A program made the translations under genes and the position numbers. The notes beneath the pieces are model-generated. The model saw only the letters and a list, made by a program, of their open reading frames with translations, was not told where the DNA came from and did not search any database. DNA of 39,203 nt from a virus: UHGV virus genome UHGV-0043900; one strand, 5' to 3'. The first letter of the stretch is position 1. Every line of letters begins with the position of its first letter. Shown here piece after piece: positions 26,437-39,153 of this stretch.

Positions 26437-26687
26437 TGAAAGCATACCGCTATTCCGGCCCGGCCAGCGGCGTCACGCTGTCGGACGGAACCGAAGTCCT
26501 GCTCTGGCCGGGGAAAACTGTTTCCCTGCCGGAGGAGCATGACTACGTGAAGGTACTGGTGGCGCTGAAGCATCTGACGCCGGTATCTGAAGAGACAAAA
26601 CCCGCCGGCACACCGGCTGTGCAGTCACCAAAGCGCAGAAGCAGCAGTGACAGCGAAGTGAAAACGGAGGACTCCCATGGCAGCTAA
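26433..26687 (+). CDS. Small structural-module protein (Mu gp38-like position)
   Basis: 84 aa ORF immediately upstream of the sheath gene. Confidence 0.45.
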   Translation: MMKAYRYSGPASGVTLSDGTEVLLWPGKTVSLPEEHDYVKVLVALKHLTPVSEETKPAGTPAVQSPKRRSSSDSEVKTEDSHGS

Positions 26688-28104
26688 CTATCTGCATGGC
26701 GTCGAAACCATTGAAGTGGAAAACGGTGCCCGCCCGGTTAAAACGGTGAAATCTGCCGTTATTGGCCTGATTGGTACCGCACCAATGGGGGACGTCAATA
26801 CGCTGGTACAGTGCCTGTCTGAGAAAGACGCGGCGGCATTTGGCAGCCAGTTCACCGGCTTTACCATTCCGCAGGCGCTGGATGCGATTTATGACCATGG
26901 TGCAGGCACCGTTCTGGTCATTAACGTCCTCGATCCGTCTGTGCATAAAACCGCTGTGGTCAGTGAGAATGTGTCGTTCGACAAGGCGACAGGCAGAGCC
27001 CGGCTGGCTAATCCGGTGGTCGCGCAGCTGGTACTGAAACCGGACAGCGACGGTCAGCCTTATGTTGAAGGTCAGGACTACTCGCTTGATGCACAGACCG
27101 GGGTGATTACTAACCTGGGTAAAAGCATTGCTGCAGATGCAACGGTGAAGGCCAGCTATAACTATGCTGATCCGACCAAAGTCACCCCGGCTGATATCAT
27201 CGGTACCGTTAACGCTGCAGGCAACCGTACCGGCATGAAGCTGCTTAACGACAGTTTTAACCTGTTTGGCTACTTCGCCAAAATCCTGATTGCTCCGGTA
27301 TTCTGCACCCAGAACAGCGTCTCGGTTGAGCTTATCGCCATGGCTGAGAAACTGGGAGCAGTAACCTATATTGATGCGCCGGTTGGTACCACTTTTGCGC
27401 AGGCTCTGGCGGGACGTGGCCCGGAAGGCAACATTAACTTTAATACCAGCTCTGACCGTGTCCGCCTGTGCTACCCGCATGTGAAGGTATATGACCCGGT
27501 GACGAACACGGAGCGTCTGGAGCCACTGAGCCAGCGTGCTGCGGGCCTGCGTGCCAAAGTCGACCTGGATAAAGGGTACTGGTGGTCATCCTCCAATCAG
27601 GAAATTCTGGGGATCACCGGCGTGGAGCGCCAGCTGTCGGCAATGATTGACGATCCGCAGAGCGAGGTGAACCTGCTTAACGAACAGGGGATCACCACGG
27701 TATTCAGCAGTTACGGCAGCGGCCTTCGTCTGTGGGGGAACCGGATGGCAGCATGGCCAACGGTCACCCATATGCGCAACTTTGAGAACGTTCGTCGCAC
27801 CGGTGATGTGATCAACGAGTCCATTCGTTACTTCAGTCAGCAGTACATCGACATGCCGATTACTCAGGCGCTGATTGATGCACTGACGGAGTCGGTCAAC
27901 GCCTACGGTCGAAAGATGATTAGTGATGGTGCCCTGCTGGGCTTCAACTGCTGGTTTGATCCGGCCCGCAATCCGGAGACGGAACTGGCCGCCGGTCACC
28001 TGCTGCTGAGCTACAAATACACGCCACCACCGCCGCTGGAACGACTGACGTTTGAGACTGAGATCACCTCGGAATACCTGTTAACCCTGAAAGGGGGCAA
28101 CTGA
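26677..28104 (+). CDS. Tail sheath protein (Mu L-like)
   Basis: 475 aa; size and position directly upstream of the tube gene. Confidence 0.85.
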   Translation: MAANYLHGVETIEVENGARPVKTVKSAVIGLIGTAPMGDVNTLVQCLSEKDAAAFGSQFTGFTIPQALDAIYDHGAGTVLVINVLDPSVHKTAVVSENVSFDKATGRARLANPVVAQLVLKPDSDGQPYVEGQDYSLDAQTGVITNLGKSIAADATVKASYNYADPTKVTPADIIGTVNAAGNRTGMKLLNDSFNLFGYFAKILIAPVFCTQNSVSVELIAMAEKLGAVTYIDAPVGTTFAQALAGRGPEGNINFNTSSDRVRLCYPHVKVYDPVTNTERLEPLSQRAAGLRAKVDLDKGYWWSSSNQEILGITGVERQLSAMIDDPQSEVNLLNEQGITTVFSSYGSGLRLWGNRMAAWPTVTHMRNFENVRRTGDVINESIRYFSQQYIDMPITQALIDALTESVNAYGRKMISDGALLGFNCWFDPARNPETELAAGHLLLSYKYTPPPPLERLTFETEITSEYLLTLKGGN

Positions 28105-28625
28105 TGTCAAAGATTGAGATAAACCGAATCACGAATGCCAACATCTATCTGGATGGTACTAACCTGCTGGGACGGGCTGAGGAGGTTAAACTCCCCGATG
28201 TCTCCATGATTATGCAGGAACACAAGGCACTGGGGATGGTGGGTAAGGTGGAACTCCCGGCTGGTTTTGACAAACTGGAAGGCGAAATCAAATGGAACAG
28301 CTTTTACCGCGATGCGATGCTGTCTGCCGCGAACCCGTACAGGTCGCTGGCGCTGCAGTGTCGCTCCAGCGTCCAGCGCTACAGCTCGCAGGGGCTGATT
28401 GACGAAATCCCGCTGGTCACCTTCCTGACAATTATGTTCAAGAAGAACCCGCTGGGGACGTTCAAACAGCACGAGAACGCCGAGTTCTCCAGCAGCTTCA
28501 CCTGCACGTATATCAGACAGGTACTGGATGGTGAAGAGCTGCTGATGCTGGACTACCTGGCCAACATCTTCCGCGTCGGTGGCGTTGATCAACTGACCGA
28601 CTACCGCATCAATATCGGAGGCTGA
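28104..28625 (+). CDS. Tail tube protein (Mu M-like)
   Basis: 173 aa immediately after the sheath with ATGA overlap. Confidence 0.75.
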   Translation: MSKIEINRITNANIYLDGTNLLGRAEEVKLPDVSMIMQEHKALGMVGKVELPAGFDKLEGEIKWNSFYRDAMLSAANPYRSLALQCRSSVQRYSSQGLIDEIPLVTFLTIMFKKNPLGTFKQHENAEFSSSFTCTYIRQVLDGEELLMLDYLANIFRVGGVDQLTDYRINIGG

Positions 28626-28627
28626 CG

Positions 28628-28909
28628 GTGAGTGTTGAACTGACGGATAAAGGAGGACGATGTGCGGCACTGGGCATGTCAAATGGTACGTGGTTTACCC
28701 TCCTTGATATTCCGGGGGTGGAAACCCTTTTTAATACCCGTAAAACCAATGACCCGATTGACTGCTCGCGTTCAAAGGCCCGCAAACTGGCGGATTTGAT
28801 TGAAGCATGGGAGCCACCCGATCACTGGTTCTCCGGCATCGACAAATCTGAGGGAAAGGCGCTTCTCATCGCTTTCCTGCGTAACTGCAAGGGGTTTCGC
28901 ACTTGCTGA
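28628..28909 (+). CDS. Hypothetical tail-module protein (93 aa, GTG start)
   Basis: GTG start 5 nt after GGAGG; followed by a terminator. No motif recognised. Confidence 0.45.
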   Translation: MSVELTDKGGRCAALGMSNGTWFTLLDIPGVETLFNTRKTNDPIDCSRSKARKLADLIEAWEPPDHWFSGIDKSEGKALLIAFLRNCKGFRTC

Positions 28910-28916
28910 TATCACA

Positions 28917-28940
28917 GGGGCTCCGGCCCCTTTCTTCTTA
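28917..28940 (+). terminator. Rho-independent terminator (GC stem plus T-tract) within the tail gene cluster
   Basis: GGGGCTCCGGCCCC stem-loop followed by TTTCTTCTT. Confidence 0.5.
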
Positions 28941-29007
28941 ATCTCCTTTAATATCCGTCACGTCCACCGCCAGACATACTGCCCTGAACTTACACAGGAG
29001 CACGATC

Positions 29008-29343
29008 ATGTCACAGACCCAGCCAGATACTTTTACGCTGTCTTATCCTTTCACCACTGCTGCCGGCACCAGAATTGAGCAGATTGAACTGAAACGCCTG
29101 ACGGTAAAAGACCTGAAGCAGGTGCGCAAAATCAACAAAGACCCGGCAGACTGGGACGAACCGCTGATTGCCCGTAGCACTGGTATCCTCCCGGAGGACC
29201 TCGATAACATGGATCTTGCCGACTATATGGAGCTGCAGAAACGATTTCAGAAAATCACTGGGCTGGACAAGAGCGACAAAAACGCTGACGCAGGCGCAGG
29301 GGCTGCTGGCAAGGTGGTTCAGGTTTCAGCCGGGGGAGATTGA
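29008..29343 (+). CDS. Tail assembly chaperone (Mu gp41 / P2 E / lambda G analogue)
   Basis: 111 aa acidic protein directly upstream of the tape measure gene; its 3' half is overlapped by a long open +1 frame. Confidence 0.6.
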   Translation: MSQTQPDTFTLSYPFTTAAGTRIEQIELKRLTVKDLKQVRKINKDPADWDEPLIARSTGILPEDLDNMDLADYMELQKRFQKITGLDKSDKNADAGAGAAGKVVQVSAGGD

Positions 29344-29425
29344 TGCCCTCGATACTGACGATCTGGAGATGTGGCTGGAGCAGGCTGAAGAGCAAATCAA
29401 AAGCGAGTTCGGCGACAATCAGTAA
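29332..29425 (+). other. Putative programmed frameshift extension of the tail chaperone (+1 or -2 at a G5 run)
   Basis: The +1 frame (ORF 29168-29425) is open across the chaperone 3' region and continues 82 nt past its stop as an acidic tail EIDALDTDDLEMWLEQAEEQIKSEFGDNQ. The GGGGG run at 29332-29336 lies just before the frame-0 stop. Confidence 0.4.
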
Positions 29426-29518
29426 CAACGTATCACTTAACAGCCGTCAGTCGCGGCTGTTCTACATGGGTTTCAGATACTTCCCTTCCGTTTTTTTTGC
29501 TTTCAGAGGATAGCCACC

Positions 29519-31984
29519 GTGGCCAGTGAATTTTCAGTCGGCGTCATTATTGGCGGCATTGTCGGGAGCAGCTTCCGCTCAGCCGTCAGTGGCACCCGAC
29601 GCGCCCTTGATTCCCTTGGTGATACCTCCCGCCGTCTGCAGGAACGTCAGAATGCCTTAACCCGGGCAACAGAACGTTATGGTCAGTTGGGTTCTTCCCG
29701 GATGCAGCGTCTCAACAGCGAGTTGCTGCGGGTAAGCCGCACCATGGAGCAAATTGAACGTCAGCAGCGCCGTCTGTCAGCAGTATCAGCCACCGATGAT
29801 GCGTTGAAGGCTAACCGCATGGCGCTCTATGGTCAGGGTGCAGAAACCTATGCTATTGGCAGAACGCTGGGCGCACCGGTCATAGCCTCGGTTAAACAAT
29901 ATGCCTCGTTTGAATCACAGTTGCGGGATATCAGTGTCACAGGAGACCTGGATGCAAAACAGGAACGTGCAATTGGCTTGGCTATCAGACAGGCCGCACT
30001 GAAGGTTAACCAACTGCAGGAGTCTCTGTTAGGGGGAGTCGGACAATTAGTTGCTGATGGTATGGCCCCTGAACGGGCAGCAACGTTTGCAGAGATGCTT
30101 GGAAAGACCGCTACAGCAACCAAAGCCGATATGACCGACCTTGCCAAAATGACTTATGCCTTCAGCGATGCGCTCAGAATCACCGATGCGAAAGAACTGG
30201 AACAGGCGTTTGGTATTGCGGCAACAGGAGCCAAACTTGGGTCATTTGAGCTGAAGGATATGGCAAAAGCATTACCCGGTATGGCTAAAGCCTTCGCTGC
30301 TCGTGGCATTTATGGAAAAGATGCAATTACCCAGATTGTTGCCAGTCTGGAGGTCGGTAAAGGTAGTGGCTCTGCAGAGGAAGCGGTCACCAATATGTCC
30401 AACTGGCTGGCAGCGATGGGCCGCGGAGATACCATCCAGAAATATGCTAAAGCCGGGGTAGATTACCAGGGGTCAATGCAGAATTACGTCGCTCAGGGTT
30501 TTTCGCAGTACGAAGCTTCACTGATGATTGCCAACCGTTTTATCGACAGTAAAGGCAAAGCGTTTTTGCAGCAATGGAAAGTCGCAGGAGCAAGAGGCGA
30601 TCAGGAAGGTCAGCAGAAACTCATGGAGTCATTTGGTCTGGCTGAGGTCTTTACCGATATTCAGACTGTCAACCATTTACTGTCAATGCGACAGGGCTGG
30701 GATAAATACCTTTCCAGTAAGCAGGAAATGAATGCTCCGGCTGCAATGTCTACCCTGGATAAGGATGCTGCAAAGCAGAATGATACGCTTGAAGGTCGCT
30801 GGCGCAGAATGCAGATCGGCTTTAATGATTCTGCTATCAGCATCGGGCAATCCTTGCGTCCGGCTTTGCTCCAGTTGGGTGAAACATTTATTCCTTTAAT
30901 GGACAGCGTTGGCAAATGGATAGCGGCAAATCCGCAGCTCGTCAGCAGCACCATAAAGGTTGTGGGCGCATTACTCGCTTTCAGGATGGCCACTATCGGT
31001 CTCAAGCTTGGGCTGAATCTCCTTATTTCCCCCTTTGTAAGCGTCTGGAAAAATGCTGTTTTGCTTCGGGCCAACTGGCTTCGTCTGACGCTTGCACTGG
31101 GGGAAGGCGGTAAGCTCCGCTGGCTGGTGACAGGTTTTGGTGCCGTCGCCAGAGGAGCCAGAACACTGGGTAGTGTGCTCTCAGGGGGGCTGGTTCGCGG
31201 CATTATGATCGCCGGGCGTGCCGTTCTCTGGATTGGCCGGGCGCTGCTGATGAATCCCATCGGTCTCGCTATCACCGCCGTTGCGGCAGCAGCTTACCTT
31301 ATCTACCGTAACTGGGGCGCAGTCAGTAGCTGGTTTAAACAGCGCTGGGCTGACATTAAAGAAGCCTTTAACGGCGGTATAGTGGGAATTGGTAAACTGC
31401 TGGTTAACTGGTCTCCTGCGGGGCTGCTTTATAAAGCCTTTGCAGCTGCGCTGAAATATCTCGGCGTTGATTTGCCGACGAAGTTCACCGACTTCGGTGG
31501 TCATCTTATCGACGGGCTGATAAATGGCATCAGAAACAAATGGGAGTCGCTCAAAACCAGCATAACCGAAATGAGTGACAGCATCAGTGGCTGGTTCAGC
31601 GAAAAGCTGGGCATCCATTCACCGAGTCGAGTATTTATGGGATTTGGTGACAATATCGCACAGGGGGCCGCCATTGGCCTGCAACGAACCACTCCGCTTG
31701 CAGCTCTGGCCGGGCAGCGTCTGGCCGCTGAAATGACACCGGATGTTCCCCGTATCCCGTCGCCGGAAATTATGACTGCCGGATATTCAGGCCGTGGAGC
31801 AACTGCCACTGGCGGTGGAACGTCTGGCAGTATCCAGATCAGCTTTAATCCTCAGTTTTTCCTCAATGGTAAGGAAACCGCAGCGCCTGCCGGGCTGACT
31901 GGTGCCCTGAATATGAGCCTGCATGAGCTGGAAAAAATGCTGGAGCGTCTGCTGATTCAGAAACAACGTAAGGAGTACAGCTGA
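29519..31984 (+). CDS. Tail tape measure protein
   Basis: 821 aa, GTG start with GAGGA RBS, helical with central hydrophobic segments; located between the chaperone and baseplate genes. Confidence 0.85.
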   Translation: MASEFSVGVIIGGIVGSSFRSAVSGTRRALDSLGDTSRRLQERQNALTRATERYGQLGSSRMQRLNSELLRVSRTMEQIERQQRRLSAVSATDDALKANRMALYGQGAETYAIGRTLGAPVIASVKQYASFESQLRDISVTGDLDAKQERAIGLAIRQAALKVNQLQESLLGGVGQLVADGMAPERAATFAEMLGKTATATKADMTDLAKMTYAFSDALRITDAKELEQAFGIAATGAKLGSFELKDMAKALPGMAKAFAARGIYGKDAITQIVASLEVGKGSGSAEEAVTNMSNWLAAMGRGDTIQKYAKAGVDYQGSMQNYVAQGFSQYEASLMIANRFIDSKGKAFLQQWKVAGARGDQEGQQKLMESFGLAEVFTDIQTVNHLLSMRQGWDKYLSSKQEMNAPAAMSTLDKDAAKQNDTLEGRWRRMQIGFNDSAISIGQSLRPALLQLGETFIPLMDSVGKWIAANPQLVSSTIKVVGALLAFRMATIGLKLGLNLLISPFVSVWKNAVLLRANWLRLTLALGEGGKLRWLVTGFGAVARGARTLGSVLSGGLVRGIMIAGRAVLWIGRALLMNPIGLAITAVAAAAYLIYRNWGAVSSWFKQRWADIKEAFNGGIVGIGKLLVNWSPAGLLYKAFAAALKYLGVDLPTKFTDFGGHLIDGLINGIRNKWESLKTSITEMSDSISGWFSEKLGIHSPSRVFMGFGDNIAQGAAIGLQRTTPLAALAGQRLAAEMTPDVPRIPSPEIMTAGYSGRGATATGGGTSGSIQISFNPQFFLNGKETAAPAGLTGALNMSLHELEKMLERLLIQKQRKEYS

Positions 31985-32868
31985 TGTTTGCCGTACTGGG
32001 TGATATTGAGTTTGAACTGATTACCTACTGGGACGGCTTCGAGGCCACGTTCGGCGTCGATTATGCGGAGCATGCCCGCATCGAGGGTAAACCCGGCCTG
32101 CAGTTCGTCGGCGACAGGCTGGACGAAATCCAGATAAGTCTGATCTTCCATCAGCATTATTGTGTGCCCGACGTGGAGCTGGCGAGACTGCGAACAGCCA
32201 TGAAGGCCCATCAGGCACTGGCGCTGGTTTTCGGCAACGGTGACTATCGCGGCTGGTTCGTGATTACCGATGTGACCGCAACCAGCGAGCAGACAGACAG
32301 CACCGGTAACGTGCTGGCTGTCAGTGCCACCGTGTCTCTCCGGGAATACACCGGTGACCCCAAAAATCCTCTGCAACCGCCGGCAATACGCAGGCAGGTT
32401 CCCGGAGCCGGGGCCGTATCTGGTGCTGTTCCATCGCCTTCCGGGGTGGCTCAGTTCGTCCGTAACGGTGTCAACTATGCGAAACAGGCGCAGTCTGTAC
32501 TCCAGACTACCATCAGTGCCGTTCGGGTGGCGCAGAAAATGAAAGGTAACCCCGTTGTCGCGCTGACCCGTGTGCCGGGACTGATGAGCGGACTGGGTAA
32601 TATATCCGGATCTCTGGGGAAAAGTATTCCGGCATTTAATGCTCTCTCTGAATCCATGCCCGATGCCATCAGTCTGGCCAGAACAGCCAGCGAAGCAGTC
32701 ATGTGTGTACAGCAGGCGCAGTCGGCGCTGAGTGGTGTGGACAAAAGAAATATTGCAGGTGCTCTGGATACCGTTTCCGGGCAGCTTAACGCTGCCGGCA
32801 CCGCATTCAACCGCATGTCTCCGGGATTAAGTGCAATGGCCGCCAGAATACTGACGAGGAGTGTGTGA
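31984..32868 (+). CDS. Tail/baseplate protein (Mu N 'DNA circulation' / P2 gpU-like position)
   Basis: 294 aa immediately after the tape measure with ATGA overlap. Confidence 0.55.
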   Translation: MFAVLGDIEFELITYWDGFEATFGVDYAEHARIEGKPGLQFVGDRLDEIQISLIFHQHYCVPDVELARLRTAMKAHQALALVFGNGDYRGWFVITDVTATSEQTDSTGNVLAVSATVSLREYTGDPKNPLQPPAIRRQVPGAGAVSGAVPSPSGVAQFVRNGVNYAKQAQSVLQTTISAVRVAQKMKGNPVVALTRVPGLMSGLGNISGSLGKSIPAFNALSESMPDAISLARTASEAVMCVQQAQSALSGVDKRNIAGALDTVSGQLNAAGTAFNRMSPGLSAMAARILTRSV

Positions 32869-33080
32869 TGTTTCTTGAACATATTACCTGTGACGGAGAG
32901 CGCTGGGATTCGCTGGCATGGCAGTACTACGGTGACCCGTTGGGCTATCCCCGGATTATTGCCGCCAATCCGCACGTGGCCATTACGCCAGTGCTGCCCT
33001 CCGGGTTGTTGTTACTGATCCCGGTTATTGAGGCTGAAGATGCCCGTACAGAAGAGGATATTGCCCCATGGCTGAGATAA
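32865..33080 (+). CDS. Tail protein X-like (LysM-like small tail protein)
   Basis: 71 aa; DSLAWQYYGDPLGYPRIIAANP resembles the P2 gpX motif. Confidence 0.6.
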   Translation: MMFLEHITCDGERWDSLAWQYYGDPLGYPRIIAANPHVAITPVLPSGLLLLIPVIEAEDARTEEDIAPWLR

Positions 33081-34222
33081 AGAGCACTTCGCAAGGCGCA
33101 TCAGCGTTAACCGGCGTCAGTGATGTGCTGACACCGGTATTCACTCTGTGGTATCTGCAGAAAAACATCACCTCAGATATCGCGCCTTATGTTACCCGTG
33201 TGACCTGGAGCGATAACATCAAAAATGAGTCCGATACCATCGAGGTGGAGCTGGACGATACCGATGGTCGCTGGCTGGATAAGTGGTATCCGGGTAAGGG
33301 TGATACTCTGACGCTGAAAATGGGCTATCAGGGCGAGAAACTGCTGTCCTGCGGTACATTTTCAATAGACGAGATCGAAGTGAGTTCGCCCGCGTCCGTT
33401 GTCGCTATCCGTGGGGTGGCCACCTCGGTTAACAGTGCTCTGCGGACTAAATCCAGCCGTGGTTTTGAGAACACCACGCTGGCGGCTGTTGCGGGGCGGA
33501 TTGCCAGAAAGCACCGGCTGAAACTGGTGGGCAGCATTGAGTCCATCAAAATCGACCGGGTGACCCAGTATGCTGAAACCGACGTGGGTTTTCTGCGCCG
33601 GCTGGCCAGCGAGTATGGTTATGCAGTGAAAGTTGTCAGTGACCAGCTGATTTTTTCTCATCTGGCCACACTGCGCAGTCAGGAGCCGGTCAGGCAGTTA
33701 AAACCGCAGGATGTGGCCCGCTTTTCCCTGCGTGACACCATCAACCGGGTCTATAAATCTGCAAAGGTAAAACACCAGAAAAGCAGCAGTAAAAAACTGA
33801 TCGTCTACGAAGCTGATGGTGGTACCCGTGAAAGCGACAAAAAGCTCAAAGGTGGTAAGGTTACCAGCGCTGACTCACTTAAAGTTAACAGCCGTGTCAG
33901 CGACCCGGACAGTGCCCGGATTAAAGCGGATTCAGCACTGGCCAGATATAACGAATACCAGCAGAACGGCTCCCTGACGCTGACGGGAACGCCTCAACTG
34001 ACAGCAGGCAACAAAATTGAACTGGTGGGCTTTGGACAGTTATCCGGTCCATGGCTGATAATTACTGCCCGCCATGCGTTTGAGCGTAACAGCGGCTACA
34101 CCACAGAGCTGGAAGTGGCACGGGGGCCAGTCACAAGAGGGAAAAAACAAAAAACTCAGAAACTCACGGTTTATCACCCGGATGGCAGTACATCGACGGT
34201 GATTAAGGAGAAGAAAAAATGA
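33068..34222 (+). CDS. Baseplate hub protein (Mu P / P2 gpD 'late control D' family)
   Basis: 384 aa, size and position after X; basic Lys-rich C-terminal tail. Confidence 0.8.
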   Translation: MAEIKSTSQGASALTGVSDVLTPVFTLWYLQKNITSDIAPYVTRVTWSDNIKNESDTIEVELDDTDGRWLDKWYPGKGDTLTLKMGYQGEKLLSCGTFSIDEIEVSSPASVVAIRGVATSVNSALRTKSSRGFENTTLAAVAGRIARKHRLKLVGSIESIKIDRVTQYAETDVGFLRRLASEYGYAVKVVSDQLIFSHLATLRSQEPVRQLKPQDVARFSLRDTINRVYKSAKVKHQKSSSKKLIVYEADGGTRESDKKLKGGKVTSADSLKVNSRVSDPDSARIKADSALARYNEYQQNGSLTLTGTPQLTAGNKIELVGFGQLSGPWLIITARHAFERNSGYTTELEVARGPVTRGKKQKTQKLTVYHPDGSTSTVIKEKKK

Positions 34223-38665: not shown

Positions 38666-39153
38666 TCCGGCACGACTGATTCCGCCGACTCCTGTGTCCA
38701 CTGCACAAAGTCCTGTTGCAGACGGTCACGGTTAATGCCGGTCAACAGCCGGGCGGCAGCAGGCGGTATATAACGCAGCGGCGAATGCAGCAGGGCCAGC
38801 AGCAACACGCCGCCGCGCAGTTCGCTGTGCTGCATCTCAGCCGACGCCAGCAGCCAGCCCTCTTTAAGCCACTCAACCAGCATCGGGGAAAACGCCGGGT
38901 AGCTGTCCGCAGAACGGGCGGTTGTGTAGTTCTCTACCGTCAGCGCCTGGCGCAACTCTTCCATGCCAATATCGCCCTGGCGGGTAATAACCCGCAGGTC
39001 ACTGCGTGGCATGGCGAGCATCTGAATGAGCACATGGCTGACGGTAATTTCCGCTGCCTGCTGACTCATACATTCAGAGGCGGCCATCTCCAGCGCCTGG
39101 CGGGAGAACAGGTTCAGCCGTTTTACCAGCGTGGGAAGATCAATCTGGATCAT
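38644..39153 (-). pseudogene. tssH: ClpV/TssH N-terminal fragment (Clp N-domain); host part 38666-39153, ORF runs ~22 nt into the prophage right end before a stop
   Basis: 169-aa ORF with strong RBS (AAGGA) and a Clp_N-like sequence (LNLFSRQALEMAASECMSQQAAEITVSHVLIQML...GGVLLLALL). Joining 39153..38672 to 2333..50 in silico gives one continuous frame (...ESAESVVPDADGKGAG...). Confidence 0.8.
38666..38671. repeat. Target-site duplication, right copy (TCCGGC)
   Basis: Direct repeat of 2328-2333 abutting the prophage CA-3' terminus. Confidence 0.5.

Follow-up and report, generated by a model that had tools for sequence, protein, structure and literature searches.

The tail assembly chaperone gene of a BcepMu-like transposable prophage, carried within the 39,203-nucleotide virus genome UHGV-0043900 (this whole stretch is called the window, and positions refer to it), very probably moves some of its ribosomes into the +1 frame by a programmed shift and so gives a second, longer product. 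This reading, which comes from the comparison of sequences, is well supported because the +1-frame peptide is homologous to gpE' of phage P2, because it has no usable start codon of its own and because 180 of 182 related loci keep it in the +1 frame. The slip itself would probably take place at the tetramer UUU_C at 29245-29248, with tRNA-Phe moving one base forward.

The first-pass annotation of this DNA had placed a frameshift in the chaperone gene, and that part of its proposal stood, on the strength of the frame relation in the 182 loci and of purifying selection on the +1 frame, as did its description of the reading frames. The chaperone open reading frame (ORF; 29008-29343, 111 amino acids (aa)) ends, as it had stated, in GCC GGG GGA GAT TGA, and the +1 frame is open from 29168 to a TAA at 29423-29425, running 82 nucleotides (nt) beyond the 0-frame stop as an acidic, protein-like tail. 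The -1 frame is also open (29289-29513), but it reads through an intergenic hairpin and a T-run and has the junk-like appearance ascribed to it. Since two off-frames are open here, ORF length alone is uninformative, and it is conservation that provides the informative evidence. The part that did not stand was the slip on a run of five G residues (the G5 run) near the 0-frame stop.

Conservation of the +1 frame and homology to P2 gpE'

The 0-frame product matched the family PF10109 with 80 bits against a cut-off of 25, and matches to this family were obtained for 20 of 20 aligned family members. As in the lambda G/GT type of gene pair, the two reading frames lie between the tube and tape measure genes, and the +1 ORF overlaps the 3' part of the chaperone gene without a usable start of its own. 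No ATG or GTG occurs anywhere in the +1 ORF upstream of the conserved core of the gpE'-like (E') region; the only TTG codons in that part precede the shift site and have no Shine-Dalgarno sequence.

Related loci (189) were gathered from GTDB genomes, IMG/VR and GenBank, and 182 of them had matches to both the chaperone N-domain and the E'-like peptide. Motif counts given below refer to 118 distinct +1-type sequences, and substitution counts to 55 close relatives that align gap-free. Relative to the chaperone N-domain, the E'-like peptide was in the +1 frame in all but two of the 182 loci, and these two (L018 and L092) are fusions by a 1-nt deletion; the comparison of the overlap across relatives, which the first-pass annotation had suggested as a check, thus came out in favour of an overlapping +1 frame. 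The frame retains the pattern ...LLARWFRFxPxEIDAL..DD...W... in Klebsiella and Escherichia phages, a Salmonella prophage, Pseudomonas phage Komp_PAO1_1 and BcepMu, and among phages of Escherichia coli, Burkholderia and Pseudomonas the peptide is conserved with protein identities of 30-40%.

The pattern of substitutions changes along the gene. From -90 to 0 nt before the TTT codon at which the slip is placed, the 55 sequences showed 42 synonymous and 19 non-synonymous substitutions when read in the 0 frame, and 8 and 53, respectively, when read in the +1 frame. Between +54 and +98 from TTT the 0 frame gave 1 synonymous and 16 non-synonymous substitutions and the +1 frame 16 and 1. Selection therefore switches frame, acting on the 0 frame upstream of the TTT codon and on the +1 frame across the downstream part. 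The absence of annotation at the E' position in the window's genome by the Prokaryotic Genome Annotation Pipeline (PGAP) might be taken to mean that no recoding occurs, the +1 ORF being either a decaying remnant or a side effect of constraints on the 0 frame; the open -1 frame also indicates that off-frame ORFs can arise here by chance. However, purifying selection on the +1 frame where the 0 frame varies freely, the conservation across E. coli, Burkholderia and Pseudomonas phages with the low protein identity noted above and the profile homology of the extension to P2 E' make this explanation hardly credible.

That homology was seen in several comparisons. As a single sequence, the predicted fusion product matched PF06528 (Phage_P2_GpE) with E 0.0031 and 17.4 bits, which is below the Pfam cut-off of 23, and 10 of 20 predicted fusion products matched this family. 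When E' profiles of the +1 type were aligned by hhalign with those of the -1 type (P2, for which GenBank AF063097 was used, Wolbachia WO, Vibrio Valp1 and Pasteurella AFS-2018a), the probability was 96.9% (E 1.8e-10), and full-length predicted fusion products of the two types aligned collinearly, their junctions lying no more than about 5 columns apart. NCBIfam gave no match to the +1-frame extension, and a sequence search of the PDB found nothing. By these alignments the window's gene is a homologue of P2 E/E+E', and it would work in the same way.

It was also seen that more distant PF10109 chaperones, those of Pasteurella AFS-2018a, Vibrio Valp1 and Wolbachia WO (L185, L186 and L187), have unannotated -1 arrangements leading into GpE-like extensions, the pieces being listed in their records as separate hypothetical proteins or left out. 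Members of the -1 type have classical heptamers, A_AAG_GGA in AFS-2018a, G_GGT_TTT in Valp1 and T_TTT_TTG in both P2 and WO, all placed in the same linker at a distance of a few codons.

In a sister E. coli prophage PGAP labels the equivalent ORF 'GpE family phage tail protein', with a start at an internal ATG that is missing from the window. This raises the idea that E' is a separate small protein (45 aa in the PGAP version found in sister prophages) with its own initiation, and many relatives do have the in-frame ATG that PGAP takes as the start (the M of ...TLMQAQG...). The window carries ACG at this position, however, and has no ATG or GTG to replace it; two loci (L004 and L110) have no start codon for E' at all, and an ATG accompanied by a Shine-Dalgarno-like sequence was present in only 5 of the 118 sequences. 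Conservation of the +1 frame moreover reaches upstream of the ATG position (GW...), and the homologous E' of P2 is produced by frameshift fusion. Separate initiation of E' is thus highly improbable.

Probable position of the slip

Five relatives (L112, L113, L114, L117 and L118) have a +1-frame TGA 11 nt upstream of the TTT codon and a 0-frame stop 21 nt downstream of it, so that their shift is confined to ACC GAC ACC TTT CGC AGC ATG GTG GAC AAC TGA. Within this stop-bounded interval (Table 1), TTT_C is the only site at which a P-site tRNA could re-pair one base forward. Of the 118 sequences 116 had TTT_C, as did 11 of 12 clusters formed at 70% identity, and none had TTC. Phe occupied the position of F80 in 116 of the 118, with the 0-frame stop following +21 to +108 nt after that codon. 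The background share of TTT among Phe codons is 0.31 for high-GC loci and 0.48 for enteric ones.

The flanking codons fall into two patterns, [UCC/GCC/ACC/GUG]_UUU_CG[C/G/U] in high-GC members and CGA_UUU_CA[G/A/U] in enteric members. The A-site codon is thus CGN in the former and CAG or CAA, with one CAT, in the latter. The E-site codon varies among the high-GC members; where it encodes Arg it is CGA in 88 of 89 cases, versus 6.3% of the Arg codons in the window's late genes. CGA TTT CAG (positions -3 to +5) is invariant in the 55 close relatives, and Pseudomonas phage Bise, a more distant member of the +1 type, has GCA_TTT_CAA. The overlap therefore contains a conserved shift-prone sequence, as in genes of the lambda type, although it is not a classical heptamer, and this 0-frame UUU_C marks the 5' end of the conserved part of the +1 ORF, as at sites of the influenza PA-X type. 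Taken together, the comparisons point to UUU_C as the probable slip site.

In the proposed mechanism most ribosomes would stay in frame and make the 111-aa protein, whose last ~30 residues would be an unconstrained Ala/Gly-rich tail. In a minority, peptidyl-tRNA-Phe (anticodon GAA) on UUU at 29245-29247 would slip one base onto UUC at 29246-29248, its Watson-Crick cognate, and decoding would resume in the +1 frame at AGA (29249-29251) and continue to the TAA at 29423-29425. A -2 shift at the same position is implausible, as tRNA-Phe would have to pair with GAU. The long product would have 138 aa (80 + 58) and the sequence MSQT...ELQKRF/RKSLGWTRATKTLTQAQGLLARWFRFQPGEIDALDTDDLEMWLEQAEEQIKSEFGDNQ, and would join the chaperone domain (PF10109) to a P2 gpE'-like domain. 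Its predicted junction, ...ELQKRF/RKSLGWTRATKTLTQAQGLLARWFRFQPGEIDAL...GDNQ, with RKSLGWTRATK after the Phe, replaces the ...VSAG/EIDALD... expected by the first-pass annotation, and the predicted Glu-C peptide across it, in which Phe is followed by Arg, is LQKRFRKSLGWTRATKTLTQAQGLLARWFRFQPGE. On the model of lambda G/GT and P2 E/E+E', coating of the tape measure protein would fall to the shared N-domain and recruitment of the tube protein to the rare E' domain, so that the frequency of the shift would set the ratio of the two products.

UUU-pyrimidine sites are reportedly shift-prone in E. coli, a finding credited to Schwartz and Curran in 1997. Slippage by +1 of a P-site tRNA on UUU_C has been shown for influenza PA-X, tRNA-Phe having a higher affinity for UUC than for UUU, and the authors of that work expected UUU_C sites with restricted A- and E-site codons to form a wider class (PMC3498833). 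TTT_C is also among the most efficient +1 tetramers in a frameshift-reporter library, in which the prokaryotic dnaX, RF2 and phage Mu sites were measured as well (bioRxiv 10.1101/2025.10.02.679949).

The earlier assignment was that ribosomes slip by +1 (GGG_G) or by -2 (G_GGG_GGA) on the G5 run, some 87 bases downstream of the UUU_C site, giving ...VSAG(G)EIDALD.... The run is indeed in the 0 frame in the window, with a TGA two codons later; it resembles the verified phage Mu -2 site CGG_GGG_CGA, and GGG is a shift-prone P-site codon (bioRxiv 10.1101/2025.10.02.679949). Among the 118 relatives, however, the run is usable, that is, inside the 0-frame ORF, in only 21 (the window included); in 28 it comes only after that ORF has ended, mostly at a TAG corresponding in position to 29320-29322, and in 69 it is absent. 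The conserved +1-frame peptide (TLTQAQGLLARWFRFQP...) starts ~50 nt upstream of the run, and the +54 to +98 stretch, with its strong +1-frame purifying selection, leads up to the run and spans it. The GpE-like core starts at 29306, and a shift at the G5 run would lose the LLARWFRFQP part of the domain. The run was rejected as the shift site on the grounds of the stops in relatives, its absence from many of them and +1-frame selection more than 50 nt upstream; the conserved 0-frame G-run at the handover to the +1/-2 frame that characterises Mu was not found, and slippage on the G5 run is very improbable.

Several observations weigh against the placing of the slip at UUU_C. Two related high-GC contigs from IMG/VR (L125 and L133) read GTG TTG CGG, not GTG TTT CGG, and no alternative slip site is evident in them, though the +1 arrangement and a conserved E' are kept; these could be decaying copies or users of another mechanism. 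The A-site codons of the enteric members, CAG and CAA, are not rare ones, and a 'hungry codon' stimulator of the usual sort is therefore not apparent. No RNA structure conserved 3' of the site was detected, the RNAalifold consensus being -2.9 kcal/mol with 6 weak pairs, and the 3' structure of the single sequence, with a z-score of -2.7, is not conserved; nor was there a Shine-Dalgarno-like element at prfB-type spacing. The third T of TTT doubles as the second base of a +1-frame TTC codon, and if the shift occurred a few codons upstream, coding in the +1 frame could explain part of the conservation of TTT, although the +1-frame stop at -11 in L004 and L112 leaves such a shift three codons without re-pairing. 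Between +6 and +27 the substitutions are mixed, so that selection alone cannot pinpoint the codon, and the exact site would be one located by comparison of relatives. Finally, the tetramer AAA_A two codons downstream and the usable G5 run could add minor products in the sublineage of the window.

AAA_A belongs to a broader alternative, in which the +1 shift takes place inside the bounded interval but without slippage of tRNA-Phe, either on this tetramer or by out-of-frame binding in the A site as in Ty3. AAA_A falls within the permitted interval and is listed as an efficient +1 tetramer (bioRxiv 10.1101/2025.10.02.679949), and because L125 and L133 hold the +1 arrangement with TTG in place of TTT, that clade at least may rely on a mechanism that is not UUU_C re-pairing. 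Against this, AAA_A is restricted to the 'CAG AAA ATC' sublineage, and it leaves unexplained both the family-wide TTT_C and the conservation of CGA at synonymous sites. We regard this alternative as rather unlikely, and slippage of tRNA-Phe on UUU_C as the preferred reading.

Other candidates in the overlap were also discarded. A -1 shift at C_AAA_AAC (29277-29283) meets a -1-frame TGA at 29286-29288 almost immediately, and further on the -1 frame is intergenic. The G4 run at 29297-29300 (GCA GGG GCT) is missing from L003, L014 and L018, and +1-frame selection begins upstream of it. An RF2-like +1 shift at GTT_TAG, the 0-frame end in most relatives, which follows a Shine-Dalgarno-like GAGGTGG, was rejected because the 0-frame stop differs in position among relatives and because +1-frame selection already acts on LLARWF, which lies upstream of this stop.

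Chaperones fused into a single ORF occur in public assemblies (P0001-P0010, L018 and L092), their junctions being scattered over homopolymer runs (an A-run, G4 and G5). In P0003, P0004, P0005 and P0009, which represent several independent clusters, single-base deletions are found at the G5 run. These fusions are probably sequencing or replication indels; being indel-like, they say nothing about the ribosomal site and were set aside as a guide to the junction.

Prophage, neighbouring genes and database records

The prophage is complete within the window (about 2334-38665), and its flanks (1260-2333 and 38666-38935) are the two parts of a split adeP, the adenine permease gene, of E. coli IGC_RcoliRes_1.1; window positions 28100-30100 are 100% identical to that strain. 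It encodes a DDE transposase, an ExeA/MuB-like ATPase, Gam, Mor, a Mu-like head module and a contractile tail module of the P2 type, and DNA of related prophages was matched in 642 of 5,426 complete E. coli genomes. The tail genes (Table 1) follow the order sheath, tube, chaperone, tape measure, gpU, gpX, gpD, with a small DUF7739 ORF between tube and chaperone.

Table 1. Features of the chaperone locus and its neighbours in the window, with the evidence for each.
Feature	Position	Strand	Evidence or remark
Tail assembly chaperone, 0 frame, 111 aa; short product, presumed abundant	29008-29343	+	PF10109 Phage_TAC_7, E 1.4e-22, aa 8-82; PGAP 'phage tail assembly protein'
Interval required for the shift, assuming its position is conserved across the family	29237-29265	+	Stop codons in L112, L113, L114, L117, L118
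Putative +1 cassette CGA_UUU_C, with CGA in the E site, UUU (F80, 29245-29247) in the P site and C at 29248	29242-29248	+	Comparative
AAA_A tetramer, possible secondary +1 site of a sublineage, two codons downstream of UUU_C	29251-29254	+	Only in 'TTT CAG AAA ATC' sublineage
G5 run of the first-pass annotation; not a conserved shift site	29332-29336	+	+87 to +91 from TTT
0-frame Ala/Gly-rich C-terminal tail, overlapping E'	29248-29343	+	No 0-frame constraint; stop at +21 to +108 among relatives
Predicted E'-type extension after the shift, 58 aa (RKSLGWTR...GDNQ) and TAA	29249-29425	+	Translation; same length class as P2 E' (57 aa)
Conserved GpE-like core LARWFRFQPGEIDALDTDDLEMWLEQAEEQIKS	29306-29404	+	PF06528, hhalign, PGAP name in sister prophage
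Sheath	26677-28104	+	
Tail tube, P2 FII-like, upstream neighbour	28104-28625	+	PF04985 Phage_tube, E 4e-53; PGAP 'phage major tail tube protein'
Small DUF7739 ORF	28628-28909	+	Weak DUF7739 match, E 3.9e-5, below cut-off
Tape measure gene, downstream neighbour	29519-31984	+	PF10145, E 1e-15; PGAP annotation
gpU	31984-32868	+	
gpX	32865-33080	+	
gpD	33068-34222	+	

The DUF7739 ORF (93 aa) is kept in the close enteric relatives L001, L002 and L019 and has no counterpart at the same position in P2. Between it and the chaperone gene, inside the tail operon, lies a GC-rich terminator-like hairpin with a T-rich tail (28916-28931). A second hairpin (29440-29460; ACAGCCG, loop TCAGTCG, CGGCTGT) is found 15 nt 3' of the E' stop and ahead of the tape measure gene. 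It has no T-run directly after it, the T8 run being at 29491-29498, and most enteric relatives retain a hairpin at this position despite differing stem and loop sequences.

No joined chaperone coding sequence for this clade was present among the GenBank and RefSeq records examined, and in prophages of this type PGAP gives the chaperone alone or together with a separate 'GpE family' mini-ORF. Locus tags in the RefSeq record skip from HUR93_RS25535 (chaperone) to RS25545 (tape measure), which corresponds to window positions 29344-29518 (record 5232260-5232434); a feature between the two may have been dropped on re-annotation, possibly the GpE-family mini-ORF. In the BcepMu records (AY539836; L023 4859-5364; L188), gp42, the E'-homologous +1 ORF, is given as the equivalent of 'lambda G' and gp43 as the slippage product. 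This annotation is probably wrong, because homology indicates that gp41 and gp42 are the E/E' pair.

Comparison with known frameshift systems

Phage P2 reportedly makes gpE and gpE+E' by a -1 frameshift at T_TTT_TTG, as Christie and colleagues are said to have described in 2002. The window's gene is like the P2 gene in lying between the tube (FII) and tape measure (T) genes and in having a PF10109 N-domain with an extension that is probably of the PF06528 type; the lengths are 85 + 57 aa in P2 and a predicted 80 + 58 aa here, and one linker would hold both junctions, some 5 alignment columns apart at most. The two differ in that P2 shifts by -1 on a classical heptamer, whereas the window's gene would shift by +1 without one. 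The distance from the shift to the 0-frame stop is 6 codons in P2 E and would be 32 in the window's gene. Pairwise identity between the two is very low, and BLASTP aligns the E' core only (E 0.025).

In phage Mu the chaperone gene is likewise located between the tube and tape measure genes and its extension is in the +1 (= -2) frame; gp41/Mu_56 is produced by a -2 frameshift at CGG_GGG_CGA (Xu, Hendrix and Duda 2004). Going by its name, PF10109 covers proteins of the gp41 type, and the G5 run of the window is a look-alike of the Mu site. Unlike the Mu run, which serves a -2 shift near the end of the ORF, that of the window is not conserved and lies downstream of the onset of +1-frame coding, and on inspection of translations the Mu extension shows no similarity to GpE. 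Lambda gpG/gpGT offers an analogy, with overlapping ORFs upstream of the tape measure gene from which two products with a common N-terminus would be made. Chaperone pairs of the lambda type are made in a fixed ratio and neither product is found in the virion (PMC5009743; Xu et al. 2004, 2013, 2014). The lambda shift, in contrast, is -1 on G_GGA_AAG, and no sequence similarity between its gene and that of the window was detectable. Among tail chaperones generally, frameshifts are -1 in most phages, but -2 in Mu and +1 in some phages and archaeal viruses (PMC5009743; PMC10885494), so a +1 shift is less atypical than the first-pass annotation had held.

With respect to the signal itself, the nearest likenesses are the sites of influenza A PA-X (UCC_UUU_CGU), amalgavirus and bee viruses (UUU_CGN) and the UUU-pyrimidine error sites of E. 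coli, which have the same tetramer and a proposed re-pairing of tRNA-Phe. High-GC members of the phage family have UCC_UUU_CGC or GCC_UUU_CGC, close to the PA-X site, and in phage members with Arg in the E site its codon appears, as has been reported for PA-X, to be conserved more strongly than the protein requires. The setting is different, the other sites being those of eukaryotic RNA viruses or unselected errors in E. coli and the present one belonging to a structural gene of a double-stranded DNA phage read by bacterial ribosomes. The enteric members also depart from the CGN of PA-X-type sites, with CAG or CAA in the A site and CGA in the E site.

In the literature searched, coverage of which was incomplete, tail chaperones of phages were nowhere reported to shift by +1 at a UUU_C, and the system is apparently of a known kind with a site type that has not been described. 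Frameshifting chaperones as such are textbook phage biology. We lean towards the view that a clade of P2-gpE-type chaperones, found in BcepMu-like phages of Escherichia, Salmonella, Burkholderia, Pseudomonas and others, has swapped the ancestral -1 heptamer for a +1 signal of the form [E-site codon]_UUU_C[G/A]N, in which the rare E-site CGA of the enteric members would be a selected stimulator.

If so, the signal would be a prokaryotic counterpart of the UUU_CGN signal of influenza PA-X and amalgavirus, and a natural bacterial +1 site that lacks a stop codon, an obviously rare A-site codon and any detected stimulator in the form of a Shine-Dalgarno-like element or RNA structure. Finding internal +1 sites is notoriously difficult where no stop codon is involved (Atkins review, on PA-X), and PRFect notes that +1 shifts lack an identified general motif; a conserved UUU_C site would give frameshift predictors a motif that they could use. 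With its conserved flanking codons, a family-wide site of this kind would offer a bacterial model of the PA-X-type mechanism, and the family would exemplify how homologous genes switch between -1 and +1 recoding at nearly the same point.

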